Shown one piece after another: positions 3,981 to 19,850 of a stretch of DNA of 64,000 nucleotides. The notes beneath the pieces are model-generated. The model was given only the letters and a program-made list of their open reading frames with translations. It was not told the DNA's origin and did not search any database. Every line of letters starts with the position of its first letter. Position 1 is the first letter of the stretch. The stretch spans positions 198,177-262,176 of the forward strand of contig JBAYVE010000001.1 in assembly GCA_041674765.1 (NCBI GenBank). Reading direction: 5' to 3'. A program made the position numbers and the translations under genes. Source of the stretch: Patescibacteria group bacterium (lineage in GTDB: Bacteria > Patescibacteriota > UBA1384 > XYA2-FULL-43-10 > 1-14-0-10-43-13).

Positions 3981-5381
3981 TTAAAAGTAAAGATCTCGTT
4001 CGCCTAATTCGAGTTTTTGTAGGCGTTCCCTGGTTTTATTTGCCACTTCTTTTGAGGGGATTAATCCTAAATATTTTTGGATGATGTTTTCACCTTTCCT
4101 CTTAACTTCCGGCGTAGCAAAATCGATCAAGTATTCCTTGAACGTAAGAATTGCATTTGGACGGCAGAAATTATGGATATTTCCAGGCTTCGCTATCTCC
4201 ATAAAATCTTTGCCGGTACGGTGGCTTCGATAGCAAGCGGTACAAAAAGAGGGGAGCAAGCCCTGCTTCAGGAGGCCTTCGACTACTTGATCCAGTGTCC
4301 GTTCATCGTTTACGACGAATTGAACTTCATGATCGGGGATCAAACTTTTATCTTTTTTTTCGCTATATCCGCCAACTTCGACACGGGAGGCGGCACTAGT
4401 CTGAGAGATGCCAAGCTTGAAAGCTTTTAATCTGGTTTCTGGTTTTTCTCTGGTCGAGATAATCATCCCAGTATACGGGACAGCCAGACGTAGGATAGCA
4501 ATAATTTTTAGCAGTTCATCTTCGGTGACAGGATATGGTGGCTTGAAATCGACAGTTGCAGCCGGCCTGAAACGGGGGACTGAGATAGTATGAGGGCCGA
4601 CGCCAAAAACCTTGTCCATATATTGGGCATGTGAGACAAGAGCCAAGACTTCAAATTGCCAATCATAAAGACCGAAAAGAACGCCGATGCCGAGATCGTC
4701 GATTCCGCCGGCAAAAGCATTGTTATGAGCAAAAAGCTGACGTTCATATTCTGCCTTGGGACCATTATGTAACTTCTCAAAAGTTGGCCTGTGATAAGTT
4801 TCCTGGAAAAGTTGATAGGTGCCGATCCCTGAATCTTTCAATTTTCGATAATTTTCCGCTGTAGTGGCAGCGATGTTTACATTAACACGGCGAATTTTGT
4901 TCGGTCCGACATTTACCTTATAGATCTCGTTGATGACCTTAACAACATAATCAATAGGGCATTCAAGAGGATGTTCGCCAAATTCCAAAAGTAGACGCTT
5001 ATGTCCCATTTTGATTAGGATCTCTGTCTGTTCGCGAACTTCTTGCAGAGTTAATTTTCGCCTTGGCAGGTTGTTCCTTCGGTGAAAGCCGCAATATTCG
5101 CAGTCGTTGACGCAAAAATCAGAGACATAGAGCGGGGCAAAAAGAACGATCCGTTCGCCATAAATTTCCTGCTTGATTTTCCAGGCTGTATCGAAGATCT
5201 CTTTGATTAATTTTGGTTCTTTGCAACCGCAAAGTAAACCGACCTCGGAGAGGGTGAGCCCTTTTTTCTTTTCCGCTTTCCTTAGAATAGCCTTGATTTG
5301 TAGTGGTTTTGGATTCGATGACCGCTTCAAGACATCATCAATCAGTTGTTCATCAATAACTTCTTTTACGTTTTTTCCCAT
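3981..5381 (-). CDS. hydG: radical SAM protein of the ThiH/HydG family; the C-terminal CX2CX22C motif suggests a HydG-like tyrosine lyase
   Basis: Radical SAM motif CVNDCEYCGF (CX3CX2C). Length 466 aa. C-terminal CTAC-(22 aa)-C matches the auxiliary-cluster motif of HydG. Confidence 0.55.
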   Translation of the reverse strand: MGKNVKEVIDEQLIDDVLKRSSNPKPLQIKAILRKAEKKKGLTLSEVGLLCGCKEPKLIKEIFDTAWKIKQEIYGERIVLFAPLYVSDFCVNDCEYCGFHRRNNLPRRKLTLQEVREQTEILIKMGHKRLLLEFGEHPLECPIDYVVKVINEIYKVNVGPNKIRRVNVNIAATTAENYRKLKDSGIGTYQLFQETYHRPTFEKLHNGPKAEYERQLFAHNNAFAGGIDDLGIGVLFGLYDWQFEVLALVSHAQYMDKVFGVGPHTISVPRFRPAATVDFKPPYPVTEDELLKIIAILRLAVPYTGMIISTREKPETRLKAFKLGISQTSAASRVEVGGYSEKKDKSLIPDHEVQFVVNDERTLDQVVEGLLKQGLLPSFCTACYRSHRTGKDFMEIAKPGNIHNFCRPNAILTFKEYLIDFATPEVKRKGENIIQKYLGLIPSKEVANKTRERLQKLELGERDLYF

Positions 5382-6422: not shown

Positions 6423-6675
6423 TGCTATTGCTCCTTCTGGGGAATTTGCTCTTCAAATGGAAGAACAGTCTATTTTGTTATATCGAACATGTTAAGTCAA
6501 GCAATATAAAGCTGTATATGCAGTTATGGAGGTAGCGGATACTTAAAAGCCGATTAAAAGTTTTGTCAAAAAAATAATAATTATTGTCCCAAAATAGTAA
6601 CATTCTCCAATTCTTGTGATGGCAAGATGGTTTAGATTACTAGAAGAACGATTGGGCCATATGAAGGAGGTATCT

Positions 6676-7200
6676 ATGGCGAAATTAGTTCTTGCTATCG
6701 TAATTGCGGTAGCGCTTGTCGGTGTTTTCGGTTGCGACGGCGGTGATAGCGATAGCGTCCCCACGCTAAAGGGAGTCGCCAATATTCATGCGGAAAGCGT
6801 GAAGCCGAGGGTCGGGGCGCTCGCGCTGAATTCACAGAGCGAATTCTATTCCGTAACTTCGACAGGCACCAAGAAATCCAGCAGCGGTTGGCAGGATGTG
6901 AACTTCACGCTTCCGCTACCCATCGGACGTTCGCGCGAAGTCTATGCGCTCGCGGCGTACAATGATCTCGATGGCAATCAGGCCTATGAGACCGGTGAAC
7001 TGCTCGGATTTTGCAGCCACTTCCTGGTCGGTCCGGACTCGGACGGCAAATTCCAGATCGTCAGCTCTGGAAATCAGGTCATCAAAGCTGACGCCACTAA
7101 ATGCTCGGGTCGCGATGTTTACATTGATTGTCTATTCACCAAAAAAACATCCGTCCAGGACATCGTCGAGAGCTACAAAAAGATTCAGAGTGCCTTGTAG
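6676..7200 (+). CDS. lipoprotein (lipobox VFGC), GC-rich gene
   Basis: Strong SD GAAGGAGGT 6 nt before the ATG at 6676. Signal peptide MAKLVLAIVIAVALVGVFGC. The 6616 start offered by the ORF track is rejected. Confidence 0.55.
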   Translation: MAKLVLAIVIAVALVGVFGCDGGDSDSVPTLKGVANIHAESVKPRVGALALNSQSEFYSVTSTGTKKSSSGWQDVNFTLPLPIGRSREVYALAAYNDLDGNQAYETGELLGFCSHFLVGPDSDGKFQIVSSGNQVIKADATKCSGRDVYIDCLFTKKTSVQDIVESYKKIQSAL

Positions 7201-7229
7201 CATTCTGGCGGCTTCTGCCGCATTTTCCG

Positions 7230-7268
7230 GTGCCGCCCCATGTCGGGCGGCATCTTTTGTGATTTCCT
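7230..7268 (+). terminator. rho-independent terminator after the lipoprotein gene
   Basis: Hairpin GCCGCCCCATGTCGGGCGGC followed by TCTTTTGTG. Confidence 0.45.
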
Positions 7269-7321
7269 TATTCCTCACTAGAAACTCATCTTATGATAAA
7301 ACAAAACTTCAATTATAAAAA

Positions 7322-7356
7322 ATCCGGATCGCCCCAGAAGGGTGGGGCGATCCGGC
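7322..7356 (-). terminator. rho-independent terminator for 7362..7745
   Basis: Perfect hairpin CCGGATCGCCCCAGAAGGGTGGGGCGATCCGG with a T-run on the minus strand. Confidence 0.6.
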
Positions 7357-7361
7357 AGGTA

Positions 7362-7745
7362 TTAGAAGCGTCCATCGAAGAGGCGCTTTCTGAAAGGGCG
7401 GCCATCGATTTGCTCCATCTTGTAGAGAATATATCTCTTGCCGATTCTCCAAAAAGGGATATGAATCGAGAGATGATAGACAATCGTCTCACGGTCTTTA
7501 AAACGGTTGGCCATTTGTGCGATAAGGAGACTCGGATAATCGCCGAAGAAAACGATCATCAGGGATTTTGCTGGTAGGGCATTTCTCTCCAGACCGAATA
7601 AACTATCCGGTGATAGGATTTTGAGTTCGCCGACATCCTCAATCAAATGCCATTCTATCGCTTGGAGTAAAACGCGGCGGCTTAAGGAAAACCTCATATC
7701 AACCTGTTGTGCCCTCATTGAGTCGTGGATAATGAACATACTCAT
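7362..7745 (-). CDS. hypothetical protein
   Basis: ORF with SD GGAGGGAGG upstream of the ATG (MSMFIIHD..). The GTG start at 7754 offered by the track is less likely. Confidence 0.4.
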   Translation of the reverse strand: MSMFIIHDSMRAQQVDMRFSLSRRVLLQAIEWHLIEDVGELKILSPDSLFGLERNALPAKSLMIVFFGDYPSLLIAQMANRFKDRETIVYHLSIHIPFWRIGKRYILYKMEQIDGRPFRKRLFDGRF

Positions 7746-7910: not shown

Positions 7911-10040
7911 TTGGGAGATTTCAAGATGAGGGGAAAAATAAGAATCAAGTTGCCGCTCTGGGCAAAAATCACTCTGGGTGCGCTGGCTTTGATGATCTGC
8001 TTATTAATAGCGCTATCTATAATTATGCGCCTTTCTCCAATCAAGATCGGCGTACTTTTGAATCTGAGCGGACCGGAGTCTTTGCCCTATAGACAAGTTC
8101 TTGAGTGGGCCCGTGAAAACACTGGCCGGAATATCGAGCTTGTTTATGTCGACTCGAATGGCGGCGATATTATGGAAAAAGCCAAGACGCTTTTGGACGA
8201 TCACAGCATTCGTGTGGTGATCGGACCGCAAAACTCTGACGAAGCGATGGCCTTGGCTCCGCTCTTTATTGAAAAGAAGAAATTGCTAATCAGTCCGACC
8301 ACTACCTCTGGCGATCTCTACCGGGCGTTCGCAGGAGAGGAATATTTCTGGCGGACAGTCGAATCAGATGTGGCTCAAGCCAGAACAATTATGGATATTC
8401 TGGCCGAGAAGGGCACAAAAAAAGTCGCTCTAGTCTATGCCGACACTTCTTATGGCAAAACTTTTTACGATTGGATCGGCTTCTATGCGACTGAAAAAAA
8501 TATTGAGGTGACTTCGATTCAGGCGCTAAAGACAAACCCGGATTATGATACTTTGGCCGCCAATGCGGCCATGGGCGAGCCCGACTATATTATTTTGACT
8601 ATGCCTCCCAAAGATTCGATCGAGCTGAAAAACCGCTTCGACAAAAACAACGTAAAATCGAAACTTTTTCTAACTGACTTGAGTCAATTTGATTCTCTGA
8701 TAGCAGAGCTTGGCGAGAGAGCTGAGGGCTTAGAATCTACCGGCCCTTCAACTGATCCAGAAAGCGGATTTGAGAAAGCTTACAGGGAAAGATTTAGTGA
8801 AGACCCGCCGATCATGATGGCTTCGACCTATGACGCCTTTATGATGGCGGCTACAACTCTCGCGAGACAAGAATACGCTCATAGATATTCACTTCTACCT
8901 TTTTCCGTCAAGGAGAATACTGCTACATCTCTTAAGCAAATTCTTTTTGGTGATATTGGCGGCAATGAATTTCGCTGGGATGAACTTGGACCAATGCTTG
9001 ATGATATTGGCCGCGGCAATATTCCTACATTGACAGGCGCTACCGGCATCGTTGCCTACGACAAAGAGAAAGGGGTTGATCCGGTCGGCACCTTTTACGC
9101 TTACTCGATTGTGAAAGACGGCAAATTCCACATCGAGCGCTTGATTTCCGCCAACAAGGGCAGAACCGTTTCGGCCGCCGGCACTATTGCAAGCGATCAT
9201 TTGGCCTATATTTCCGATACTGATACACAAACCAATTTGCCGGAGAAGAAGGATCTGCAAGCCGTTATCATTGCCACGACCGACCAATGGCAAAACTATC
9301 GCCATCAATCCGACGCCTTTGCCATGTATCAGCTGCTTAGAAGTAATAATGTCCCTGATGATAAAATCACACTCTTTTTGATCGACGATATCGCAAATTT
9401 TTCGAAAAATAATCCAAAACCCAGTCTCTTCCATATCAAAGACGGCTCGGATAATTACTCAAGCTCGGCAATTGATTTTTCGGGGGATAAAGTGACGGCC
9501 GAGAATCTAAAACAAACTCTTCTAAATTTGGACAGCGACAACCAAACAAATTTACTGGTTTATGTTGCCGGCCATGGCGGGACGGGTAGCAATTCTACTG
9601 ATTCAGCCAATAATCAGCTTGGAGATGAGGGGATCATCCGCTTCTCCAATGGCAATAATATGACCTCGACCGAATTAAAATCCGTCATTGAAGAAATGGC
9701 TGGCAAGCAAAAATACCGCCAGATGATGGTAGTCTTAGAGACCTGTTTTAGCGGCGCAATGGGTAAGGATATCACAACTCCAAATGTCCTCTTTATGACT
9801 GCGGCCTCCGATCAGGAGGTCTCCTATGGCGCCAACTATAGCCCGAAGATCAAACAGTGGCTCGCAGATAATTTTACTTACCAATTAATCGCCCAAATCA
9901 ATAAGGATCCCGAATCTTCAATCGCCGACCTTTACAGTAAGGTGTACAAAAATGTCCCCGGCTCCCATGTAACGCTATTGAATTGGAAAAACTTCGGCAA
10001 CCTGACAAAAACACCGATCAGCAGCTTCTTGAGACCGTAA
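7911..10040 (+). CDS. fusion protein: N-terminal TM anchor, type-I periplasmic binding protein-like (Leu/Ile/Val-binding, ANF-receptor-type) domain, and C-terminal peptidase C13 (legumain/GPI8-like) domain
   Basis: TM helix ITLGALALMICLLIALSIIM. PBP1 signatures IKIGVLLNLSGPESL..VVIGPQNSDEAMALAPL. C-terminal NYRHQSDAFAMYQ..DDIA, catalytic-type VYVAGHGG and ETCFSGAMG, matching the legumain His/Cys dyad context. Confidence 0.7.
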   Translation: MGDFKMRGKIRIKLPLWAKITLGALALMICLLIALSIIMRLSPIKIGVLLNLSGPESLPYRQVLEWARENTGRNIELVYVDSNGGDIMEKAKTLLDDHSIRVVIGPQNSDEAMALAPLFIEKKKLLISPTTTSGDLYRAFAGEEYFWRTVESDVAQARTIMDILAEKGTKKVALVYADTSYGKTFYDWIGFYATEKNIEVTSIQALKTNPDYDTLAANAAMGEPDYIILTMPPKDSIELKNRFDKNNVKSKLFLTDLSQFDSLIAELGERAEGLESTGPSTDPESGFEKAYRERFSEDPPIMMASTYDAFMMAATTLARQEYAHRYSLLPFSVKENTATSLKQILFGDIGGNEFRWDELGPMLDDIGRGNIPTLTGATGIVAYDKEKGVDPVGTFYAYSIVKDGKFHIERLISANKGRTVSAAGTIASDHLAYISDTDTQTNLPEKKDLQAVIIATTDQWQNYRHQSDAFAMYQLLRSNNVPDDKITLFLIDDIANFSKNNPKPSLFHIKDGSDNYSSSAIDFSGDKVTAENLKQTLLNLDSDNQTNLLVYVAGHGGTGSNSTDSANNQLGDEGIIRFSNGNNMTSTELKSVIEEMAGKQKYRQMMVVLETCFSGAMGKDITTPNVLFMTAASDQEVSYGANYSPKIKQWLADNFTYQLIAQINKDPESSIADLYSKVYKNVPGSHVTLLNWKNFGNLTKTPISSFLRP

Positions 10041-10077
10041 TACTGATTCAGGAGAATACCCTCCTTACCTTATTGTC

Positions 10078-10130
10078 AAAACCGCCGTGCCACGCCGTAG
10101 CTCCGCCAGCTGGCGGAAGCGAAGGATGGT
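10078..10130 (-). repeat. interspersed core-repeat copy (reverse orientation) with a CCGCCAGCTGGCGG palindrome
   Basis: AAACCGCCGTGCCACGCCGTAGCTCCGCCAGCTGGCGGAAGCGAAGGATGG. Inverted partner at 11180..11219. Confidence 0.5.
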
Positions 10131-10403
10131 ACTTAATTATGTAGCGTCCCCTAACCCCTATAAATTCAGAATCTTCAACATGGAACTCTTGAAGTTTGAA
10201 CAGTTTAATGAAACAACTTTCCGTGGGTAGGCTCCTTGTATTAACTTGCTGGTTATCACAATTAGTCTACCCTTTTTCGTTTTAAGCATAAAACGAGATT
10301 GGTAGTACCACATTATTTAGTATAGAGCCAGTTAATTCTTGATAGATTATTCATTTTATGCTATGGATACTAGTATCAAACCCAGGGCAAGGAGGGTATC
10401 ATA

Positions 10404-11012
10404 ATGCCTGACAACTTACGAGACGCAGTCGACCTGCTGCTCAAGCTTCGGCCTTCTTATGTGAAGGCAGTCTGCTATCTGCTTCAGGATCTAGCCGGAG
10501 CCTCCTGTGAAAGTGCTCTTGAATTCTTCAGGTCTGTCCTTGTACAGGAATACTGGACAACAACAGTTCCCAGTGTCGAGACATTCGACGTTGGCGCACA
10601 TTTCAGAAAAGGAGAAACTGACGGTGTGAAGATTGCTTATTTTGGAATCATCAGTCCTTTGCAGATAGATGGTATCGTCGAGGAAAATGTCCCAGAGCAA
10701 ACCCTTGGATTCTGTCAGACAAAAAGGGCTTGTGGCTTTGCGGAGATTGCCGATGCTTTCCATCAACCTACTACCACCTACTTTGCTCATATCTGGAGTC
10801 TGATGAAGGAAGAAGCCCCAGAGTTCATGGGTGAATCAAAGTCATTCATTGTAGAAGTGGCGGGAAAAAAGCTGCATGTTTCCTGCAGTGATAGCGAAGG
10901 CACCTCCTACAATGATAAAGGGTGGCACATACATATCTGTATCTTGGGCGAGGAGGGGTATATTCAGCACAAAGGTACAAAGGTTGCTTTCCCACTCTTT
11001 TTGGAGCAGTAG
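10404..11012 (+). CDS. hypothetical protein (GC-rich relative to neighbours)
   Basis: 202-aa ORF with SD AAGGAGGGT upstream and a strong terminator downstream. Confidence 0.45.
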   Translation: MPDNLRDAVDLLLKLRPSYVKAVCYLLQDLAGASCESALEFFRSVLVQEYWTTTVPSVETFDVGAHFRKGETDGVKIAYFGIISPLQIDGIVEENVPEQTLGFCQTKRACGFAEIADAFHQPTTTYFAHIWSLMKEEAPEFMGESKSFIVEVAGKKLHVSCSDSEGTSYNDKGWHIHICILGEEGYIQHKGTKVAFPLFLEQ

Positions 11013-11039
11013 CAAAACCGGAATAAAATAGAATACCGA

Positions 11040-11078
11040 GACCTTCCCTGCAAATGCGCGGGAAGGTCTATTTTTTTT
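11040..11078 (+). terminator. rho-independent terminator
   Basis: GACCTTCCCTGCAAATGCGCGGGAAGGTC followed by TATTTTTTTT. Confidence 0.75.
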
Positions 11079-11179
11079 AAAACAAAAAAGTTTTCAAAAA
11101 TTCTTATTCAACTTTTTTGGAGGAGTAGCTTTTTGATTTCTGTGATTTTGTTTTTTTGGGGATGCTACACTTCCAAGCG

Positions 11180-11219
11180 CCATCCTTCGCCAAGCCTACG
11201 GAGTGGCACGGCGGTTTTG
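11180..11219 (+). repeat. interspersed core-repeat copy (forward)
   Basis: CCATCCTTCGCCAAGCCTACGGAGTGGCACGGCGGTTTT. Confidence 0.5.
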
Positions 11220-11388
11220 ACGATATTACTGGTATGGCTACCCAAGAATCCAAGCGGTTGCTATAATGTAACCATTGCAAAAATCTAAAAACAAAAAGAA
11301 AAAATGGTTAACCAGAGGTTTCTTGGTGGGTTTTTTGGCAGGGATTGAACATGTAAGTTCTAAGTTAATTAAACAATTGGAGGGGGCA

Positions 11389-11793
11389 ATGAAATCGAGC
11401 AAGAAAAATGTGTTTAAGATCACAAATTTTATCATTGGAACAGTGCTCGGGATTATCTTGGTTATCGCCGGCACTTTTGTGTATTTTCAAATAAATATTT
11501 CTACTCATAGTTTTCCCCCGGCAAATGGCGGGACGGGTGTCAACTGTGGTGAAACAGCTACCAAAGATTTTTTCCAATGCTTCGAAAGTGGCAAAAACAG
11601 GCTCGACTGTTACTTTAGCTGGGCTGCCAACATAAAGGCTTGCCAGCCACGACCCACCATGGCAGAGTGCTCTAATTATTTTGTCCCACATTATAATGAA
11701 TGTGTAGCTAAATGCTTCAAGTGGGAATGTAATATCGGTTGCAACCGGGAGCTGGCAACACTTCAGAATGGTTGCTTTTATACACTATGGTGA
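11389..11793 (+). CDS. membrane-anchored cysteine-rich protein, member of the KK-TM-PPTNG / hypervariable Cys-rich family
   Basis: SD GGAGGGGG before the ATG at 11389. Lys-rich N-terminus, TM helix IIGTVLGIILVIAGTFVYF, PPANGG motif, then 12 Cys in 80 aa. The longer 11275 start is less likely. Confidence 0.5.
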   Translation: MKSSKKNVFKITNFIIGTVLGIILVIAGTFVYFQINISTHSFPPANGGTGVNCGETATKDFFQCFESGKNRLDCYFSWAANIKACQPRPTMAECSNYFVPHYNECVAKCFKWECNIGCNRELATLQNGCFYTLW

Positions 11794-11847
11794 GCATTTA
11801 ATAACTTTGAATTATATTCAAAGAGCGCAAGTGTGGTATGTAGCTCC

Positions 11848-11912
11848 GACAGATTCCCGCCTTCCGCCTTCGCTCGCTTGAGCTACGGAGGGACAAGTCG
11901 CGGGAATGACAA
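11848..11912 (+). repeat. hairpin element GATTCCCGC/GCGGGAATGAC with the core insert in its loop
   Basis: ACAGATTCCCGCC-TTCCGCCTTCGCTCGCTTGAGCTACGGAGGGACAAGT-CGCGGGAATGAC. Near-identical copy at 13219..13281. Confidence 0.55.
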
Positions 11913-12181
11913 TACATAGACATGAGATCTACTGATGGAGCTTACCTCGAACTCGGAGCCCGAAATGACGGTAAAAACTAGATCCCCGGATCAAGTTCGA
12001 GTATAACAACCGTAGCTTGGATTAGTCCAAGTCCGAGAGCCTGCACTCGACTCGATTAGGGAAATGGACTCCAGCAAAAGTCAGAATTAGCCGCAAATAT
12101 GGCTTTTCCGTCAGCTGGCGGATGAAGTGTTCCCGGCGCTCAGTTAAAACTATAATAAAAGCTAATCTTAATGCCAAGATT

Positions 12182-12541
12182 TCAGTCTGTGTCTGCAAGT
12201 TCGCCCTGTGCGATGTCTATAAGCAAGTCTGCTAGATTTTGCAATGCAGTACATCTGGCATTCCCTTCTTGGACGCCACTTGTAGAAAGTCGAACATGGG
12301 TTGGTATTTGAGCCTCAAATTCACGGGCTATAGTAAATAAATCTTCGGTGGAGGCATCTAAAATCCGCTCGAGTTTCTCTTGGATTTCCTCCTCTCCAAA
12401 ATTGGCTGCCTCTAGTAGTTTTCTTATACTATCTTCAGCGTTCAGTAATTGCTCACGGGGATCCACGGGGACTTTGCCAGGGTCACCGGAATCATCAATA
12501 ACTTGTTCCAACGGCAAGGACCCATAATCTTCAAAAGCCAT
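12182..12541 (-). CDS. hypothetical acidic protein
   Basis: 119-aa ORF rich in D/E. Confidence 0.35.
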   Translation of the reverse strand: MAFEDYGSLPLEQVIDDSGDPGKVPVDPREQLLNAEDSIRKLLEAANFGEEEIQEKLERILDASTEDLFTIAREFEAQIPTHVRLSTSGVQEGNARCTALQNLADLLIDIAQGELADTD

Positions 12542-12863
12542 ATTCTCCCTTTTGTTAATTACTTATTTGAATGATTACAGGATAACAAAATGCCAAACAT
12601 TTAGCAATTTGGCACTCCTTTATAGGGGCGCTCCCAAAACGAAGCAAGATTCTCAATAGACCATTTTTGGCAAAAAAGCCAGGAGATACTAAGCACTGAC
12701 AGATCCCCGGGTCATGGCGTTGCTTGCCCAAGGATGACAGTATAAGCAAGAACTAAGTCAAGGATTTATAGTCTATCGCTTCCAACCACATTCTCTATCA
12801 TTTCTGTCCACATTCAATGGCATTCACGCTACACTATTTCTGTCATTCCAGCCCTCTTCAAAT

Positions 12864-12888
12864 GTCATTCCCGCGCAGGCGGGAATCT
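12864..12888. repeat. short form of the GATTCCCGC hairpin element (no core insert)
   Basis: TGTCATTCCCGCGCAGGCGGGAATC. Second short copy at 13332..13357. Confidence 0.5.
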
Positions 12889-12914
12889 CTGATGGGTAAG
12901 CTCTGGCGGTAAAC

Positions 12915-13208
12915 TTACGAAGAGATGATCTCCGAATACAAATCACGCATTTCCGGGTTATCTTTTCTTATCAAATTAAGCTTCCACTCTCTGTTCCATT
13001 TTTTGATTTGTTTTTCTTTCGTAATCGCACTATTAATATCGCTGCAAGAATCGAAATAGAGAAGGTGCTTAATATTATATTTTTTGGTGAAACCATCAAC
13101 TAGACCTTCTTTGTGTTGGTAAACTCTTCGAATTAAATCATTGGTAACTCCGACATAGAGAGTTAGGCTTATGCTGCCCATAATGTAAACATAGTATTGT
13201 TTTTGCAT
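12915..13208 (-). CDS. GIY-YIG family nuclease (UPF0213-like small standalone)
   Basis: YYVYIMGS..LYVGVTNDLIRRVYQHK is the GIY-YIG signature. 97 aa. Confidence 0.8.
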   Translation of the reverse strand: MQKQYYVYIMGSISLTLYVGVTNDLIRRVYQHKEGLVDGFTKKYNIKHLLYFDSCSDINSAITKEKQIKKWNREWKLNLIRKDNPEMRDLYSEIISS

Positions 13209-13218
13209 GGTTGCTTCA

Positions 13219-13281
13219 GCAGATTCCCGCCTTCCGCCTTCGCTCGCTTGAGCTACGGAAGGACAAGTCGCGGGAATGACC
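13219..13281 (+). repeat. hairpin element with core insert (copy of 11848..11912)
   Basis: AGATTCCCGCCTTCCGCCTTCGCTCGCTTGAGCTACGGAAGGACAAGTCGCGGGAATGAC. Confidence 0.55.
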
Positions 13282-13377
13282 TACTAATGTTGTAAAAGTT
13301 TCGGCAGATTGCCCAAGGAATTTACCCCCGACAGATTCCCGCCTGCGCGGGAATGACACAGGGATTGTGGGGATGGG

Positions 13378-14457
13378 CTATTTATACTCCGCATAGTAGA
13401 TACCTTTTTCGTGCTGGCCGAAGTACATAAACCAATTATCACTGATCTTTATAAAAGTCGGGTCACTCGCTGGATTGGCTACAAATACAACTGATTTATC
13501 ATTGTTGTTGGTCCAGACAAATTCCGGGGTGGAGAAAGTGCCATTTTCATATTTGGAGTGATAAATACCATTATAGCTCCAAAAATAAGCACGAATCTCT
13601 GTCTCGCCGGTCGCTTCATTTGTCCAGCTAACAAATTCTCCGCCATCAGCAAAATTATACAATTCATCATTTCGCGAATCGATTGCCAGTCCCTTCTTTT
13701 CAAAAGTAAGCCCATCATTTGAAATTGCATAGAAATATATCTGCGTGTTGTTATTTGGAACCTTCATCGTGCCTTGATAAGGCTGATTGATAGTACCGCG
13801 ATAAATCATAAGATAGGTGCCATCCGAAAGCTGAATAGTGGAAGTTGCGCCGACATTTTCTAGAGTAAAGCCAGTCTCATCTTTATCTATTCTAGCACCA
13901 GCTTCATCAGTGAACTTTAGTCCATCAATAGAAACTGCACTTTTGACCACGCCGCTATTTTGAAAATACATTCGCCATCGGCCATCCGGAAGTTTTATAA
14001 CATCAGCAAAGGTCGATTTTCGCTTTATTTCTCCTTCATCTGTCCAATTGATTCCATCAGAAGAAACCGCCGAGAATACACGCGCTTGGAAATCGTTTAC
14101 TTCTGGCTCTTCTGAGTAGTACATCCGATATTGGCCGTTACCCGGATCAACGATTTCAGAATCAGCGTATTTACCGGCAATGGCCACGCCGCCCTCCTGC
14201 CAAGTCTTAGCTATCTCGGTGGTACCGATAGTAGAGTCATCTTCGTTGGCAACGGTTTCTTTGGCATCTTTGGGCCACAAAAAGTAGGCAGCCGCCCCTA
14301 CCACGATAAGGACTGCAATAAGCAAGATAATCAGCCCTAGTTTCTTTTTGTTGCCATTAACTTCAATAGCTTCTATTTCCTGATCCATTTCCCTCCAAGT
14401 ATATTTATAAATATTTAGTTGATGCTTGCTTATTCGTGTAGCGCCCTCGCTTTGCAT
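13378..14457 (-). CDS. membrane-anchored Asp-box (BNR) beta-propeller protein, paralog of 1874..2902
   Basis: N-terminal TM helix. SSDGINWTDEGE, SIDGLKF, SNDGLTFEKKG Asp-box-like repeats. Confidence 0.5.
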   Translation of the reverse strand: MQSEGATRISKHQLNIYKYTWREMDQEIEAIEVNGNKKKLGLIILLIAVLIVVGAAAYFLWPKDAKETVANEDDSTIGTTEIAKTWQEGGVAIAGKYADSEIVDPGNGQYRMYYSEEPEVNDFQARVFSAVSSDGINWTDEGEIKRKSTFADVIKLPDGRWRMYFQNSGVVKSAVSIDGLKFTDEAGARIDKDETGFTLENVGATSTIQLSDGTYLMIYRGTINQPYQGTMKVPNNNTQIYFYAISNDGLTFEKKGLAIDSRNDELYNFADGGEFVSWTNEATGETEIRAYFWSYNGIYHSKYENGTFSTPEFVWTNNNDKSVVFVANPASDPTFIKISDNWFMYFGQHEKGIYYAEYK

Positions 14458-14463
14458 ATTTAG

Positions 14464-16182
14464 CTAATTCTTTTTCACATAATCGGCAAAATACGCCGGA
14501 TTGAGTTTTTCTCCGGTTGATTTTTCTATCATTTTTTGCCAGGGATATTTGGCGCCGAGTGAAAAGACTTCTCTTTGGAAATATTCGCCGATCTTTTTCT
14601 CTCCCGAGTAGCTTGCAAACTTTTCAGAACCTTTTGCTATGTTGTTATCAATATAGTGGCGAAATTGAGCGGACAGGAGATAGCCAAGCATGTAGTTATG
14701 ATAATATACCGGTGTCTGGATAACATGTATTTTGGTTGCCCAGTCGGGCATATCACGATTCTCCGGCCGGTTTACGAGCTGGTATTTCTCTACCAAACCC
14801 CACCACAGTTTATTCAAATCCTGATCGGGGTTTTCGTACATTGCTTTCTCGAAGCGATACATTACCTGCGTCCAGCGTGAAAAAATCAAAGCGTTCAAAC
14901 GATTGTATTCCGAAGCAGCGGAGCTAACTTCAGCGATTTTACCCGCCTCAATGTCAAAACTTCCTTTCACCCACTCAGGAGAATAGACCATATCTTCAAA
15001 AAAGAGGGCGACGGCTTCGGTGGTAAAAATATGAGCCGGCGTTCGAAGTTCCCACGGCAACTGTGGATCTATTTTTTGGTCGTACAGAGCGTGGCCAAAT
15101 TCGTGAAGCGATTTTGCCATCCAATAATTGTTGTTTTCCAGATTGACAATCACTCGGATATCATCGCGTCTGTCCATATTAAAGGCGACGGCATGCTGGT
15201 ATTTTCCGTCTCTCTGATAGAGATCGCTTTTTTCTGCCAACGGATCGATAGGCAATCCTAAGCTATTGAAATAATCTTTGGCCAAAGTCAACACATTCTT
15301 ATCTTTGTACAATTCATCCAAGTCGACGCTCAAGATGCGAGGTACTTCCTGAAAATAGCGGTTTTGATAGTGCCAAGGACGAAGATCCTCTACTTTAATC
15401 TGATATTTTGAGGCGAGCGCCTCGTCGATTGACGCTTTTGCCTCCGCATAAATTTCTCCGGTTGCGAGATCCAAATCGTCAAAGATCTTGTCCATCTCTG
15501 TGGGATCCTGCTCCGAGAGGGTCAGTGTCATCTTTTGAAAATCGGAAAAGCCTAGATCGCGAGCGATTTCGTTTCTGATTTTCGCCATTTTCACAATCTC
15601 TTGGCTGGTTAGATCGCCGATTTTTTTGCTTGCCTCCCAAACTTCTTTTAATTCATTCGAATTTGTCGAGGTCTTTAAGATATTTTCCACTTCGTTATCA
15701 GTGATTTCTTTCCCATTCAAAGAAGGTCGAAAGGTATTAAACTTCTGCTCGAGTTCACTTTGAGTTATTGTAATTTTCTCAATTTTTTTCTCATCTGATT
15801 GACTGGATATAAAACCAGCGTACTGGATATCCAATTGCCGTTTCAGAAGAGGGTCTTTGATATGACCGGCTTCTTTCCATTTTTTTAGCTTCAAAAAAGC
15901 ATCCTTATCCAAGAAAATCTTTTCCATTTGCAGATTTAGTTCAGTCGATTTCTTGTAATCTTCCTCCCGGCCGGAGGCCAAAGCAGTAAAATATGCGATG
16001 TTGGCTTCCTTTTCCAGGGGGATAATACGGTTTTCGTATGAGGCAAGAAATTCTTTGTACCCGGCTTCTGCCCGATAAGTTTTTGCTACCGGATATCCCA
16101 CGATAACAAATAAAATAGTAGCTACCAGAGACGTTAAAACATACCATAGAATTTTTTTTATTTTAAACATTTCCTCCCTCAT
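14464..16182 (-). CDS. zinc metallopeptidase, M3 (oligoendopeptidase F)-like or M32-like, with N-terminal TM anchor
   Basis: HEFGHALYD zinc-binding motif. 572 aa. N-terminal hydrophobic helix. Confidence 0.55.
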   Translation of the reverse strand: MREEMFKIKKILWYVLTSLVATILFVIVGYPVAKTYRAEAGYKEFLASYENRIIPLEKEANIAYFTALASGREEDYKKSTELNLQMEKIFLDKDAFLKLKKWKEAGHIKDPLLKRQLDIQYAGFISSQSDEKKIEKITITQSELEQKFNTFRPSLNGKEITDNEVENILKTSTNSNELKEVWEASKKIGDLTSQEIVKMAKIRNEIARDLGFSDFQKMTLTLSEQDPTEMDKIFDDLDLATGEIYAEAKASIDEALASKYQIKVEDLRPWHYQNRYFQEVPRILSVDLDELYKDKNVLTLAKDYFNSLGLPIDPLAEKSDLYQRDGKYQHAVAFNMDRRDDIRVIVNLENNNYWMAKSLHEFGHALYDQKIDPQLPWELRTPAHIFTTEAVALFFEDMVYSPEWVKGSFDIEAGKIAEVSSAASEYNRLNALIFSRWTQVMYRFEKAMYENPDQDLNKLWWGLVEKYQLVNRPENRDMPDWATKIHVIQTPVYYHNYMLGYLLSAQFRHYIDNNIAKGSEKFASYSGEKKIGEYFQREVFSLGAKYPWQKMIEKSTGEKLNPAYFADYVKKN

Positions 16183-16205
16183 TTTTTCATAGATTAGAAT
16201 TCAAT

Positions 16206-16610
16206 TCATTCAAACCTGCAGGTTCCTTTGCATTCGTCATATTGGGTATCGCATTTGGTAGAATTTGAGCCAAAGGTCATCCGGCAATTTCTAAGCTTGA
16301 CATCGCATTTACTGGAGACGCATTCGTTAGTGCATTTTTGGGATTCTTTTTGGCACCTCCAGTAGTCCTTGGTGTTGTTGTAACAGCAAGTTTGGAAATT
16401 CCGGCACATACTCGGGTCTGACCAAATATTGTTTGAATTCCAACCGCAAAAACCGTAGCCTCCGCCGTTTGTTGGCGGCAGGAGAGTCTTGCTGCAAGAA
16501 AAGAAATAGTTATAGGCAAAGAAGCCGGCAGCAATGATAGCCAAGCCGACAACAAAACCAATGATTCCGCCCTTAGTTAAAAATCGCTTTTTCGCTTTAT
16601 TTTTTGTCAT
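16206..16610 (-). CDS. membrane-anchored cysteine-rich protein (family member 1)
   Basis: MTKNKAKKRFLTKGGIIGFVVGLAIIAAGFFAYNYF..PPTNGG, then 16 Cys. Confidence 0.55.
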   Translation of the reverse strand: MTKNKAKKRFLTKGGIIGFVVGLAIIAAGFFAYNYFFSCSKTLLPPTNGGGYGFCGWNSNNIWSDPSMCRNFQTCCYNNTKDYWRCQKESQKCTNECVSSKCDVKLRNCRMTFGSNSTKCDTQYDECKGTCRFE

Positions 16611-16732
16611 TTATCCCTCCTATCTATATTATATAACGTAACCGCTCAATGTTATTTCAGTTTTACTCTTACTTTGTAGTCCAGACTTTAGTCTGTTTTA
16701 TTATTTACAAGCTTACTACTTCGTTAAAGCTA

Positions 16733-16800
16733 CCATCCTTCGCCCTACGGCTACGGCATGGCATAGCGAAGGACAAGCTAAAGCTTGGGCTACGGTGAGT
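16733..16800 (+). repeat. interspersed core-repeat copy
   Basis: CCATCCTTCGCCCTACGGCTACGGCATGGCATAGCGAAGGACAAGCTAAAGCTTGGGCTACGG. Confidence 0.45.
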
Positions 16801-16831
16801 GGTTACCTCGCGGCACTACGGCGGTTGCGAT

Positions 16832-17239
16832 TTATTGCCATTTGAACCCGCAAGCCTTCCTACATTTACCGAGGTTTTCGGTGCAGTGATACCATTCCGG
16901 ACCGTTTTCATCATAGGCCGCGTCACATGCTTCAAATTTGGCCTCACAGCAATCATGGCAAGTATCGATGCATTTATCTTTTTCCTTGGTGCACCCGGTT
17001 AGGCAGGGAATAAATCTATTGCACGTGCCGTTGCAGCATCTGCTATATTCAGCGCAATTTCCGGTGCAATTATCGCTGACATTCCAAGCGCACTCACCGT
17101 TGGTTGGCGCGTTACCGCAAGAAAAGTAATTGTACGTAAAGAATCCTCCGACGATCAGAACCAACCCGACGATGAAACCAATCACTCCGCCTTTGGTTAA
17201 AAATCGCTTTTTGTTTCCAGGTAGTGAAAATTTTGTCAT
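16832..17239 (-). CDS. membrane-anchored cysteine-rich protein (family member 2)
   Basis: ..NKKRFLTKGGVIGFIVGLVLIVGGFFTYNYF..APTNGE, then 19 Cys. Start overlaps the stop of the upstream GIY-YIG gene. Confidence 0.55.
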   Translation of the reverse strand: MTKFSLPGNKKRFLTKGGVIGFIVGLVLIVGGFFTYNYFSCGNAPTNGECAWNVSDNCTGNCAEYSRCCNGTCNRFIPCLTGCTKEKDKCIDTCHDCCEAKFEACDAAYDENGPEWYHCTENLGKCRKACGFKWQ

Positions 17240-17508
17240 TTTTCAACTTTCTTTTTGTATAAGTATTCTTTAATCATTCGCTTAATAAGTCTAGCTCCTT
17301 GGCTAGTTTTGAGATATTTTTCTCTTCGTCTGGCATCTTGCTCTTCCAAATAACTTTCGTAAAAAATTAATTTCCACGGTTTACCGTTCTTTGTTGAAAA
17401 ATTCAGCCCTTTATTATGTTCCGAGAGACGACGCTTGAGATCACTGCTATAACCGATGTAAAAACCATTGTTCTGTTCACTTTGTAATAGATAAACATAG
17501 TGGAACAT
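17236..17508 (-). CDS. GIY-YIG family nuclease
   Basis: HYVYLLQSEQNNGFYIGYSSDLKRRLSEHN, 90 aa. Confidence 0.8.
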   Translation of the reverse strand: MFHYVYLLQSEQNNGFYIGYSSDLKRRLSEHNKGLNFSTKNGKPWKLIFYESYLEEQDARRREKYLKTSQGARLIKRMIKEYLYKKKVEK

Positions 17509-17577
17509 AGTTATAAAATTTCTACTACCTGGTTTTTTAATATTTTTTTCATTTTCCTCCTAATGGTAAATTGACTG

Positions 17578-17850
17578 TCAATTGCCCTCTTGTTTTTGGC
17601 AATTGCCGTAACAATTTGTACAATCAGTAACACAATTGCGCACGCAAAAATTATTGCCTCCGCAACCCCCAACACAGCTGTTATACGCATAGTCGCAGCA
17701 TCTTCGGCAACTAGCAAAGCAATTAGTCGGAGCAACTTTTCCTGATGAAGCATAATTGTAAGCCAAAAAGCCGCCGACGAAGAGAACCAAGCCTACAGCA
17801 AAGCCTAGAATTGCCCCTTTGGTGATGAATTTATTCTTTTTAGTTTTCAT
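17578..17850 (-). CDS. membrane-anchored cysteine-rich protein (family member 3)
   Basis: MKTKKNKFITKGAILGFAVGLVLFVGGFLAYNY..APTN, then 17 Cys in 60 aa. Confidence 0.55.
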   Translation of the reverse strand: MKTKKNKFITKGAILGFAVGLVLFVGGFLAYNYASSGKVAPTNCFASCRRCCDYAYNSCVGGCGGNNFCVRNCVTDCTNCYGNCQKQEGN

Positions 17851-17956
17851 AATTTTATTAATAACCTATCTTTTATTGTTTGAGACCTGCCTTATGAGAA
17901 GGTCCGGAACTATAAAAACTCTCACTCTATTCGAAGAATGTTTTCTACTGCCTTGC

Positions 17957-18088
17957 TTAGAAATTAGTTGGCGGCAAAAGATCGATTTGATAATAAAATT
18001 TGAACACCAAATACAGCCCGATCAGACCAATGACAATACCAGCAATCAGGCCTGTCAAAAAGCTCGATGAAACTATTCTTTTCAACAT
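17957..18088 (-). CDS. truncated or leader-only member of the Cys-rich family (ends right after PPTNF)
   Basis: SD GGAGGGAG before the ATG. MLKRIVSSSFLTGLIAGIVIGLIGLYLVFKFYYQIDLLPPTNF-stop. Confidence 0.35.
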   Translation of the reverse strand: MLKRIVSSSFLTGLIAGIVIGLIGLYLVFKFYYQIDLLPPTNF

Positions 18089-18265
18089 TTTCTCCCTCCG
18101 TTTATAGAACAATATTAATTTATGTCTCATGCATTTTCCGTAGACCACGCTTCAGCGTGCTACAAATTCCTTCACGGAAAGTTTTTTTACTGACAAACTA
18201 AAGTTTGGTCTCCAAATATGTAAATCCCATATTTCCTCTATTATCCTAGCATTTGGTACCACTTG

Positions 18266-18326
18266 TCAAACACCCCCACCCTTCGCACAAGGCTACGGAG
18301 TGGCACGACATGTGGTGGGGCGTTTG
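18266..18326 (+). repeat. hairpin CAAACNCCCCA/TGGGGCGTTTG carrying the core insert
   Basis: CAAACACCCCCACCCTTCGCACAAGGCTACGGAGTGGCACGACATGTGGTGGGGCGTTTG. Confidence 0.55.
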
Positions 18327-18364
18327 AAATTAGAGATCTTAATCACATCAATTTTTGGAATTAT

Positions 18365-19030
18365 TTAACTTAACGGTTCAAATTTCTTCCATTTGCCCTC
18401 GGAAATCACCTCTATTCGGCCATCTGTTACGGCAACTGCCGAGTTGTCATCAATAGCATAAAAAGTTGATTTCAATTCATCCGCCAACACCTGAACTGTC
18501 TCATCTGTATATTGAGGACGGTTTGGATTGTAAAAGTGAGGCCTGATGCTGAAATCGACATATTCTAAGCCCTTGTCTCCTTCGAATTCTGGAATTTCCT
18601 CAACATATTTCTTAGGTGCTGTTGAAACGATCACCTTCCCCAAAATTACAGAGCCGGCGCTGCAACCAACATAAACTTTTTCTTTAATCAAATCCTTCAG
18701 AATTTCTGTCAAACCGGCTTTCTCCATCCAGTAAATCAAATGGTATGGGTTACCTCCGCCAACCATGATTGCATCGGCTTGTTTTAGTCTTGGAAGCCAG
18801 ATTTCTTTTGGGATGGCGGAAAACTCAACAATATCTATCTTCCCGATTTTCATCTGATCGAGTTCGATTAAATTCTTGATAATCCAACGTTTATCAGTCG
18901 GTTTGGCCACGTTTACGGCTGTTGGAATATAAGCAACAGTCAAATCTTGCGGCGGTTTGCCGACCATCTCGAGAAATTTATTTTCTATCGATTTATTTGT
19001 AATACCTGTCGAGGTTAAAAGTAATTTCAT
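18365..19030 (-). CDS. peptidase S51 (dipeptidase E / cyanophycinase-like) family protein
   Basis: LLTSTG..YIPTA..GGNPYHL..VGCSAGSVI, 221 aa. Confidence 0.7.
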   Translation of the reverse strand: MKLLLTSTGITNKSIENKFLEMVGKPPQDLTVAYIPTAVNVAKPTDKRWIIKNLIELDQMKIGKIDIVEFSAIPKEIWLPRLKQADAIMVGGGNPYHLIYWMEKAGLTEILKDLIKEKVYVGCSAGSVILGKVIVSTAPKKYVEEIPEFEGDKGLEYVDFSIRPHFYNPNRPQYTDETVQVLADELKSTFYAIDDNSAVAVTDGRIEVISEGKWKKFEPLS

Positions 19031-19085
19031 ATAGTAATGATAACATAAGTTTTTGAAACATTTAATTATTTAGCTTAAATCATTG

Positions 19086-19143
19086 AACGGCCCCACCCTT
19101 CGCACAAGGCTACGGAGTGGCACGGCATGTAGCGGGGCGTTTA
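19086..19143 (+). repeat. second copy of the hairpin plus core-insert element
   Basis: ACGGCCCCACCCTTCGCACAAGGCTACGGAGTGGCACGGCATGTAGCGGGGCGTTTA. Confidence 0.55.
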
Positions 19144-19155
19144 ATGATATTAATT

Positions 19156-19362
19156 TTATTCACTTCTGTATTCCAAAATATCACCAGGCTGGCAGTCTAG
19201 CGCCTTGCAGACTGATTCTAAGGTTGAAAATCGAATCGCTTTTGCCTTGCCATTTTTGAGGATAGAAAGATTGGCCATCGTGATCCCGACTTTCTCCGAG
19301 AGTTCGGTAACGCTCATTTTCCGTTTGGCCAGCATCACATCGATATTGATGATAATTCCCAT
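19156..19362 (-). CDS. XRE-family helix-turn-helix transcriptional regulator (YozG-like)
   Basis: MLAKRKMSVTELSEKVGITMANLSILKNGKAKAIRFSTLESVCKALDCQPGDIL. Confidence 0.75.
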   Translation of the reverse strand: MGIIINIDVMLAKRKMSVTELSEKVGITMANLSILKNGKAKAIRFSTLESVCKALDCQPGDILEYRSE

Positions 19363-19370
19363 AGCACTCC

Positions 19371-19850
19371 TTAGACCGTGAGGTCGTTTTCTTTCTTAAT
19401 ATCGATGGCATTTTGAAACAGCTTCTGAAAGACTGCGGCAGCGGTGGCAACTACAAACGAAGCACCGACGATAACCAGGCCAATCAATGCTACCCCAGGC
19501 GCGTCGTCTAGCTCTGCCACAATAAATATGAATGGCAGGCACGCTGCATACAGGGCACCGATAATAGTGGCGCAATTTTTTATATTTTTCAACGCTTTGA
19601 CAGATAGTTCTGAGAAGGCAATATTTTTATCGATATAGGTCAAAAGTTTAAGCGCCTGAAACAAGGCGATATAAAAGGGGATAGTTGACGCGATCAAAAC
19701 TATTAAAATCGGCAGGAGCTGATACTGAACCGGCATAACATCTACCATTTCTCTGGCTATCGAGGGCAGCACAAATATGCATAAGGCAAGGACGGCTAGG
19801 CCAATGAGAATAATAACGCCTTTTAAGAACAGTGTTGATACTTGTTTCAT
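19371..19850 (-). CDS. DUF2975-like membrane protein, commonly paired with YozG-type HTH regulators
   Basis: Four TM helices. Immediately upstream of, and co-oriented with, the HTH gene. Confidence 0.5.
   Translation of the reverse strand: MKQVSTLFLKGVIILIGLAVLALCIFVLPSIAREMVDVMPVQYQLLPILIVLIASTIPFYIALFQALKLLTYIDKNIAFSELSVKALKNIKNCATIIGALYAACLPFIFIVAELDDAPGVALIGLVIVGASFVVATAAAVFQKLFQNAIDIKKENDLTV

Follow-up and report, generated by a model that had tools for sequence, protein, structure and literature searches.

We analysed a window of 64,000 nucleotides from a Patescibacteria group bacterium (assembly GCA_041674765.1, contig JBAYVE010000001.1, positions 198,177 to 262,176), in which five small genes, members A to E, cluster 1.3–8 kb from a gene for a C13 peptidase fused to a periplasmic-binding protein (PBP) domain, here called C13-PBP (Table 1). 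Each member begins with a K/R-rich N-terminus, continues with a single hydrophobic helix and then has a short linker with P-[TA]-N, the hinge, at its end. We call the segment from the start codon to the hinge Asn the anchor and everything behind it the tail, and refer to genes of this layout as TM-PxN genes, after the transmembrane (TM) helix and the hinge. Going by the positive-inside rule, the K-rich N-terminus would place the Cys-rich part outside the cytoplasm. A preliminary description of this DNA had reported five related open reading frames (ORFs) with a K-rich N-terminus, TM helix and hinge, and all of them were found where it placed them, with the hinge reading P[TA]N. Its 12–19 cysteines have to be corrected to 10, 13, 17 and 11 in the whole proteins A–D (10, 12, 16 and 11 in the tails), and its ectodomains of 60–110 residues to tails of 47–88 residues.

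Member A lies downstream of the C13-PBP gene on the same strand and has a GGAGG ribosome-binding site before its ATG. The shortest gene, member E, had been taken for a truncated copy. It is a functional, conserved short-tail gene and no pseudogene, because 43-aa orthologues are kept in two related genomes (L004 and L001, described below) with a ratio of nonsynonymous to synonymous substitution rates (dN/dS) of 0.03–0.07, and because it has a good ribosome-binding site (GGAGG before the ATG). Upstream of A, a sixth member survives as a remnant: a hidden Markov model (HMM) of the anchors matches the ORF segment 11272–11790 with E = 4.9e-12, the matched stretch being model positions 7–29, and the DNA of the remnant aligns with the 5′ end of gene H, a 170-aa member directly after the C13 gene of L001.

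Table 1 Genes and features of the C13-PBP and TM-PxN region, in window coordinates.
Feature	Position	Strand	Description
C13-PBP gene	7911-10040	+	709 aa; N-terminal TM anchor, type-I periplasmic-binding domain (Peripla_BP_6), Peptidase_C13 domain
202-aa ORF	10404-11012	+	Between C13-PBP gene and member A
Remnant of sixth member	11275-11346	+	MQKSKNKKKKWLTRGFLVGFLAGI; K-rich N-terminus and half TM helix, in frame upstream of A
Member A	11389-11793	+	134 aa; hinge PAN 11518-11526; tail 88 aa, 10 Cys
TM-anchored 359-aa protein	13378-14457		In the block between A and B
ACE-like (angiotensin-converting-enzyme-like) M2/M32 metallopeptidase	14464-16182		N-terminal TM helix; in the block between A and B
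Member B	16206-16610	-	134 aa; hinge PTN 16467-16475; tail 86 aa, 12 Cys
Member C	16832-17239	-	135 aa; hinge PTN 17099-17107; tail 88 aa, 16 Cys
GIY-YIG nuclease gene	17236-17508	-	PF01541, E = 3.3e-17; between D and C; stop overlaps C start (ATGA)
Member D	17578-17850	-	90 aa; hinge PTN 17722-17730; tail 47 aa, 11 Cys
Member E	17957-18088	-	43 aa; anchor, hinge PTN (17963-17971) and one Phe, then stop; 0 tail Cys
S51 peptidase gene	18365-19030		After E

An anchor that ends in an invariant Pro-x-Asn

Alignment of the N-termini had been named as a test of relatedness. We aligned the anchors locally and scored them against shuffled controls, which all pairs exceeded (z 3.4–23.5): scores were z = 15–23.5 among B, C and D and 3.4–8.6 for pairs with A or E. 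At the DNA level, a direct repeat of 94 nt spans the anchors of B, C and D with 64–74% identity. A comparison of 32 anchors, drawn from about five phyla, shows Met1 and the Pro and Asn of the hinge as the sole invariant residues, and conservation ends abruptly after the hinge Asn. The layout is that of a leader, in which a basic start is followed by a single TM helix, ~5–15 linker residues and the invariant Pro-x-Asn; this signal is N-terminal in every member. In A–E, motif, TM helix and basic cluster are all present, in the reverse of their order in C-terminal sorting signals. An invariant P-x-N followed by free variation is what the junction between a leader and its core would be expected to look like.

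Other readings of the hinge were considered and set aside. A lipoprotein, read from an FSC motif in B and C, was rejected on the grounds that A, D and E have no such Cys and that the motif is no lipobox. N-glycosylation of the hinge Asn finds no N-x-S/T pattern after the Asn, and spontaneous Asn-Gly cleavage is incompatible with the variable residue at P1′, directly behind the Asn. Pro comes right after the Ala preceding the hinge, which makes a cut by signal peptidase I just before the hinge unlikely.

Orthologous tails are kept under purifying selection

Among 5.8 billion proteins, member C has only two word-indexed matches, P0001 (90%) and P0002 (65%), both of them orthologues. Their contigs, L001 (from an activated-sludge assembly) and L004 (GCA_964463585.1), are both syntenic with the window. 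The array of L004 comprises E′, D′, C′, B′, two extra members F (18 tail Cys) and G, and A′, and that of L001 comprises E″, D″ and C″ together with the different 170-aa member H. When the window anchors were searched exhaustively with HMMER against 1.84 billion representative proteins, only the same clade and one further relative, P0248, came back; the 1.2-kb contig of P0248 carries three tandem members. The Patescibacterial subtype is thus very rare in public data.

The preliminary description had proposed rapid diversification and gene conversion, and the comparison with L004 and L001 contradicts both. Orthologous tails are 69–93% identical and keep every Cys, and tail dN/dS is 0.06–0.17 (window against L004, and the comparisons for D; dS was saturated for C against L001, which gave no ratio), values that exclude positive or diversifying selection. 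Member A is 93% identical to its L004 orthologue, with a tail dN/dS of 0.11; the L004 orthologue of B keeps 12/12 Cys (0.17); orthologues of C keep all 16 (0.06 against L004), and those of D 11/11 (0.08–0.10). Tails are more conserved than anchors in most pairs, and equally conserved in A and in C against L001. As to gene conversion, anchor DNA is 80–96% identical between the window and its L004 orthologues and 63–75% against L001, compared with at most 72% between paralogues of one genome, and this identity matrix excludes recent conversion between paralogues. The paralogues arose long ago, differ from one another and are each under constraint of their own. The array itself changes by insertion, deletion and gene loss, since a GIY-YIG gene, a 4.4-kb block and individual members differ among the window, L004 and L001.

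A shared cysteine rhythm and a predicted helical fold

The tails had been described as having wholly different cysteine spacing, which did not stand up to closer comparison. The tails of B and C are homologous (z = 6), and gaps of 3 and 6 residues dominate across 15 tails of Patescibacterial type: 52/131 gaps are of 3 residues against 12.7 expected from shuffles (a ~4-fold excess of CX3C), and 27/131 are of 6 residues against 7.4 expected. The number of Cys is even in 13 of the 14 Cys-containing tails of this type. The repeating unit is CX3C-X6, with a period of 11 residues, which would set the Cys on one face of a helix. Cys-rich relatives from archaea share this rhythm, P0233 being an example (gaps 3, 6, 3, 8, 3, 6, 3).

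An AlphaFold2 (AF2) model of D from its single sequence is a helical hairpin, with helices 43–63 and 67–88, a predicted local distance difference test score (pLDDT) of 78–86 in the tail and low confidence in the hinge (35–42). For C, an alignment of four sequences gave a weak model (pLDDT 58) with a TM helix, a disordered hinge and a helical tail, so that in both models the hinge is a low-confidence segment between TM helix and tail. In agreement with the preliminary description, to which no family had come to mind, no curated family was found: all five members were without match among Pfam, NCBIfam, PHROGs and PADLOC profiles, and a PDB sequence search with a profile of C, two orthologues and B was empty. 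Nor was there a profile or solved-structure match to known Cys-rich families (knottin, metallothionein, defensin and bacteriocin models). A Foldseek search of the D model against the PDB gave no match with E below 3, the top entries, Ole e 6 and neurotoxin B-IV, not being significant.

Disulfides could staple the CX3C-X6 helical hairpins, or their thiolates could bind metal. As the hosts are anaerobic and their habitats anoxic, a role of the tails in metal binding or signalling is no less plausible than one as a disulfide-stabilised toxin. The tails of D and of the L004 member F end in Asn as their last residue (…QKQEGN and …SDKCDN), and this Asn is kept in the orthologues of D. It could not serve cyclisation of the asparaginyl endopeptidase (AEP) type, because no leaving group follows it.

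A wider archaeal family with short tails

A profile of the 32 anchors retrieved 211 small proteins, and the figures in this section come from the best 120 of these. The relatives are 50–91 aa long, without a Pfam domain and labelled "hypothetical", and most of the named ones come from Methanoregula. P-x-N stands at the end of the anchor in 107 of the 108 relatives whose anchor is aligned to its end. After removal of duplicate tails, 102 relatives were left. Counting outward from the putative junction, P1 is Asn, P3 is Pro in 102/102 and P4 is Ala in 69, and P1′ is variable, mostly Gly or Ser and once Pro. The archaeal tails range from 1 to 47 residues with a median of 10, and 15 of them are Cys-rich; tails of 1–10 aa are the commonest form, which makes short-tail members such as E normal for the family. 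Recurring types are CxxxC nonapeptides (TPCQPMCFD, SGCKPYCIGN), hexapeptides ending in …DPW and WRILIKEQIALPA-like peptides. Pfam and NCBIfam hold no model for either the anchors or the tails.

These relatives also bear on the idea of a type IV pilin-like protein or pseudopilin. A prepilin peptidase would then cut a class III signal peptide consisting of the basic N-terminus and a Gly (…TKG|G…), and the helix would be the core of a filament. B, C and D do have a K-rich leader, a Gly and a hydrophobic stretch of ~20 residues, and the Joint Genome Institute (JGI) labels two archaeal relatives "FlaG". We nevertheless hold this reading to be very improbable. Position +5 is not Glu, the KG motif is missing from A and E, and the archaeal relatives have acidic N-termini and no K/R-G/A site. 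The conserved element, P-x-N, comes after the helix and not before it, tails of 1–10 residues are unable to form pilin heads, and no prepilin peptidase or pilus gene was found in the region.

A C13 peptidase with a predicted asparagine-specific pocket

The C13-PBP gene is publicly annotated as P0003, with 704 aa and a start probably at 7926. Its Peptidase_C13 domain (PF01650) scores 154.3 bits against a gathering cut-off of 22.8 (E = 5.9e-45) and its periplasmic-binding domain (PF13458) has E = 5.4e-32; the best PDB matches are legumain (E = 4e-25), glycosylphosphatidylinositol (GPI) transamidase and plant asparaginyl endopeptidases and ligases. The catalytic residues N462, H555-G556 and C612 (Asn42, His148-Gly and Cys189 of legumain) are invariant in 19/19 homologues, as are R464, H465 and D653 of the S1 pocket (Arg44, His45 and Asp231 of human legumain), and the S1 position 610 (Glu187 of legumain) is E in 12 and D in 7 of the 19. 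We regard the product of 7911–10040 as a candidate processing enzyme of the legumain/GPI8-like C13 family with a predicted Asn-specific S1 pocket. Legumains cleave after Asn. The tripeptide Pro-Thr-Asn, identical to the hinge in the window, has been used as a legumain-cleavable linker (PMC12140387).

Relatives of the C13-PBP fusion are encoded in at least 547 species-level genomes, and two metagenome scans for close relatives of the window gene yielded only a contig that was already known. Outside its own small clade, the closest relatives are mostly archaeal, at 38–41% identity (ANME-1, Thermoplasmata, Methanospirillum and Methanoregula). Because the closest relatives are mostly archaeal and the small P-x-N genes travel along, this pattern suggests that the whole module, C13-PBP plus small P-x-N genes, was transferred between domains in shared anoxic habitats.

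TM-PxN genes lie beside C13-PBP genes in other lineages

We examined 80 loci around C13-PBP homologues, taken from GTDB species representatives, by a six-frame scan for a basic N-terminus, a TM helix and then P[TSA]N regardless of position, followed by the anchor HMM. Members occur in 14/80 loci, which with L004 and the window makes 16. These loci belong to Methanoregula, other Methanomicrobiales, Methanoculleus, Undinarchaeota (L012) and Woesearchaeota (L042), and many hold tandem arrays; weaker candidates lie beside C13 genes of a second Patescibacterium (L010), on an Actinomycetota contig (L009) and, as a lipoprotein, in a Coriobacteriaceae locus (L023). In 16/16 member-bearing loci the nearest member is at most 2.4 kb from the C13 gene. 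Within 3 kb of it lie 34/43 members, though this range makes up only 33–36% of the flank space. In Methanomicrobiales loci we counted 13.2 members per 100 kb within 3 kb as against 0.4 at 3–10 kb (~30-fold; 11 loci against 1 in the near-versus-far test, p = 1.7e-4). At L096, whose C13-PBP is 51% identical to that of the window, four tandem K/R-TM-PP[TA]N Cys-rich genes lie directly upstream. Members are missing from C13 loci at no more than 35% identity (Bacteroidota, Myxococcota, most Actinomycetota, and metagenome loci), which confines the link between C13 genes and members to a single subclade.

Around the archaeal C13 loci, no further partner gene proved to be conserved. Across all 80 loci, a lipoprotein gene of the Bmp family (PF02608) directly follows C13-PBP in 29 (for example L062 7815–8816, from a Bacteroidota genome), and it does so too in L087/L088 (L087 8475–9488), the sole locus found from the member side that has both a member and C13-PBP; a second solute-binding protein is thus a frequent partner of C13-PBP. 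In L085 (6430–8273), on a Methanoregula-like contig of 1.4 Mb, members flank a gene for an Rce1-like/CPBP intramembrane protease (6589–7443), which could be an alternative processing or an immunity protein. That locus has no C13 gene, and the Rce1-like protease next to members was seen there only among the member-side loci.

The co-occurrence bears on what the preliminary description had proposed, a surface-displayed anchored family. On such a reading the Cys-rich modules would be displayed permanently for adhesion or host contact, P-x-N would be a mere structural hinge and the C13 neighbour coincidental. One part of that description stood, namely a paralogous, N-terminally anchored family whose topology fits anchoring with the N-terminus in and the C-terminus out. 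In addition, of the archaeal members on long contigs, most are not beside a C13 gene. Permanent display, on the other hand, leaves unexplained why Pro and Asn are invariant across phyla with free variation after the Asn, and why members are enriched ~30-fold beside C13 genes; moreover, a tail of 1–10 residues displays nothing. We therefore consider permanent display unlikely, and the conservation of the hinge together with the adjacency to C13 genes points instead to processing at the hinge.

Proposed release of the tails, and its alternatives

We propose, giving it about an even chance of being right, that the anchor with its P-x-N is a leader that is cut after the Asn by a C13 enzyme. The genes would encode precursors in which a conserved signal-anchor leader precedes a cargo that varies: a Cys-rich helical mini-protein in this Patescibacterium and mostly a peptide of 1–47 residues in methanogens. 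The precursor would insert with its N-terminus inside and its cargo outside. The co-encoded C13-PBP enzyme (7911–10040), presumed to be membrane-anchored and extracytoplasmic, would recognise the P-x-Asn junction and cleave after the Asn, so that the cargo would be released and the anchor stub left in the membrane. Topology, cleavage and the role of the released cargo are inferences in this model.

Several observations weigh against this proposal. Tails of a single residue, as in E and several archaeal members, make no sense for cargo release, and the role of the fused binding domain is left unexplained by it. The link between C13 genes and members is a statistical one, drawn entirely from genomic comparison: in Methanomicrobiales, ~70% of the C13 loci are without a nearby member, C13-PBP lies within 8–10 kb of just 1/7 archaeal members on long contigs (P0175), and there are Methanoregula contigs with clusters of members far from any C13 gene. 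Such looseness on the member side would fit dispersed substrates of one enzyme, by analogy with sortase and exosortase systems.

Since single-residue tails do not fit release, we keep open a second use of the same junction, in which the enzyme acts as a transpeptidase. It would hold the TM-anchored N-terminal part as an acyl-enzyme at the Asn and ligate it to an amine, with the tail as leaving group; candidates for the amine are another protein's N-terminus, a component of the envelope and a ligand on the fused binding domain. Many tails are indeed only 1–10 residues long, and that of E, a single Phe, belongs to a gene that strong purifying selection maintains (dN/dS 0.03–0.07). Short tails are the typical leaving groups of asparaginyl ligases, as in butelase (N|HV) and OaAEP1 (N|GL). 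The best structural relatives of C13-PBP include GPI transamidase, and the fused binding domain could present the nucleophile. The long Cys-rich tails tell against it: they are under strong purifying selection with every Cys kept, and hence not disposable. A candidate acceptor was not found either, and we judge ligation to be rather unlikely. Extended to the whole module, C13-PBP and TM-PxN would be a prokaryotic asparaginyl transpeptidase system, matching GPI transamidase or plant peptide ligases, in which membrane-anchored P-x-Asn acyl donors covalently tether or exchange extracellular cargo; it would have moved horizontally between methanogens and Patescibacteria of the same habitat and may serve interaction with archaeal hosts; this broader idea seems to us quite doubtful.

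Insertions and neighbouring genes

The preliminary description had also noted a GIY-YIG nuclease gene that interrupts the copies, and it does lie between C and D (17236–17508; Pfam E = 3e-17). It is flanked by an 18-nt inverted repeat (17217–17234 and 17515–17532) and is missing from the D–C spacer of L001 and L004. With a spacer of only 24–26 bp there, the gene is a recent mobile insertion and no member of the family. A second stand-alone GIY-YIG gene (12915–13208) has an inverted repeat at 12863–12921 and 13300–13358. A GC-rich element of ~70 nt (…CAGATTCCCGCCTTCCGCCTTCGCTCGCTTGAGCTACGGA…GACAAGTCGCGGGAATGAC) occurs twice, at 11840–11910 and 13210–13280, with 93% identity, and shorter copies lie at 11835–11862, 13205–13232 and 13317–13344; all copies surround this second GIY-YIG gene, and the element may be part of its mobile unit. 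In addition, a 20-nt motif, CAAG(C/G)CTACGGAGTGGCACG, is found three times in intergenic DNA (11191–11210, 18288–18307 and 19105–19124; none expected by chance), two copies bracketing the whole region from A to E. It could be a repeat resembling repetitive extragenic palindromes (REP-like).

The 4.4-kb block between A and B (11794–16205), which holds the second GIY-YIG gene, a 119-aa acidic ORF and the two anchored proteins listed in Table 1, is in neither L004 nor L001; in L004 its position is taken by members F and G. Extracytoplasmic peptidases surround the array, the S51 peptidase gene following E. Just upstream of E′-D′-C′-B′ in L004, a gene fragment (2–298) ends with a sortase-like …LNLITCGG…, which we take to resemble the catalytic signature TLxTC of sortases; no such fragment stands at that position in the window. 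The 202-aa ORF between the C13-PBP gene and A has no match in Pfam or NCBIfam. Since its position is taken by other genes in related contigs, this ORF probably does not belong to the system: an unrelated 276-aa ORF is found there in L004, and no ORF in L001.

Between 10404 and 19030 there is no modification enzyme (radical SAM, LanM, YcaO or similar) of the kind found with peptides made by the ribosome and modified after translation (RiPPs), no dedicated exporter such as a C39 one and no GG motif. The sole radical SAM gene of the window (3981–5381, with a BATS domain) lies outside the array, ~6 kb from A and on the far side of the C13 gene. Rfam models found nothing over 10000–19500, and promoter and terminator scans stayed at chance level.

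Relation to known systems and significance

The closest parallel in enzymology is the processing of cyclotides and knottins by plant legumains, where a C13 enzyme acts at an Asn bordering a Cys-rich mini-protein, the P1′ residue is small (G or S) and one conserved enzyme serves many variable cargos. Here, however, the enzyme is prokaryotic, membrane-anchored, fused to a PBP domain and without the C-terminal prodomain of legumain. Unlike in cyclotide precursors, the Asn lies N-terminal of the cargo, behind a TM anchor, and nothing indicates head-to-tail cyclisation; by prediction the tails form helical CX3C hairpins rather than cystine knots, and cleavage is a proposal made from sequence. GPI transamidase (GPI8/PIGK) shares a homologous C13 catalytic domain and a site a short spacer away from a hydrophobic segment. 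GPI8, though, removes a C-terminal hydrophobic signal and adds a glycolipid, whereas the segment here is N-terminal and P1 strictly Asn, and neither partner subunits nor a lipid donor are known.

In its architecture, the system resembles sortase/LPXTG, exosortase/PEP-CTERM, archaeosortase/PGF-CTERM, rhombosortase and myxosortase, with a tripartite signal, a dedicated (here putative) peptidase and many substrates per enzyme, some of them encoded beside it. It differs in that the signal is an N-terminal mirror image (basic cluster, TM helix, motif), so that a cut would free the cargo and not re-anchor it, in that the enzyme belongs to clan CD, family C13, and in that no NCBIfam model covers the signal. 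Precursors of bacteriocins, RiPPs and pheromones (double-glycine leaders with C39 peptidases, Phr) likewise join a leader that is conserved to a hypervariable core, and they too form tandem arrays near a protease gene; our genes have a TM signal-anchor ending in P-x-N instead of a soluble GG leader, cores of up to 121 residues, and no modification enzyme or dedicated exporter in the cluster. With plant alpha-hairpinins, twin-CX3C proteins, Ole e 6 and the nemertine neurotoxin B-IV, the tails would, as predicted, have in common paired CX3C on two antiparallel helices. They have no significant sequence or fold match to these (E > 3) and carry many more Cys, in a CX3C-X6 repeat, and unlike in disulfide-stapled hairpins the thiols may bind metal in these anaerobes.

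That a dedicated peptidase goes with a sorting or leader signal is a known concept; what seems not to have been described is this particular signal, its mirror layout at the N-terminus and the employment of a C13 enzyme. Nothing relevant came out of literature searches on legumain in prokaryotes, bacteria or archaea, on methanogen C13 peptidases or on precursor systems of a related kind. Prokaryotic C13 peptidases are widespread, and in the literature searched we found no described substrate or function for them. The TM-PxN genes provide a concrete candidate substrate family with a defined putative cleavage motif, A/P-P-x-N|. If the proposed cleavage is correct, biotechnology may gain new Asn-specific proteases or ligases from the system. 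Among the small genes of methanogens and Patescibacteria, several hundred without annotation would then be likely to encode precursors of secreted peptides or Cys-rich mini-proteins, and the anchor would be an N-terminal, mirror-image counterpart to C-terminal sorting signals. For archaea, in which secreted signalling or metal-binding peptides are, to our knowledge, almost unknown, it would amount to a new route of peptide release.

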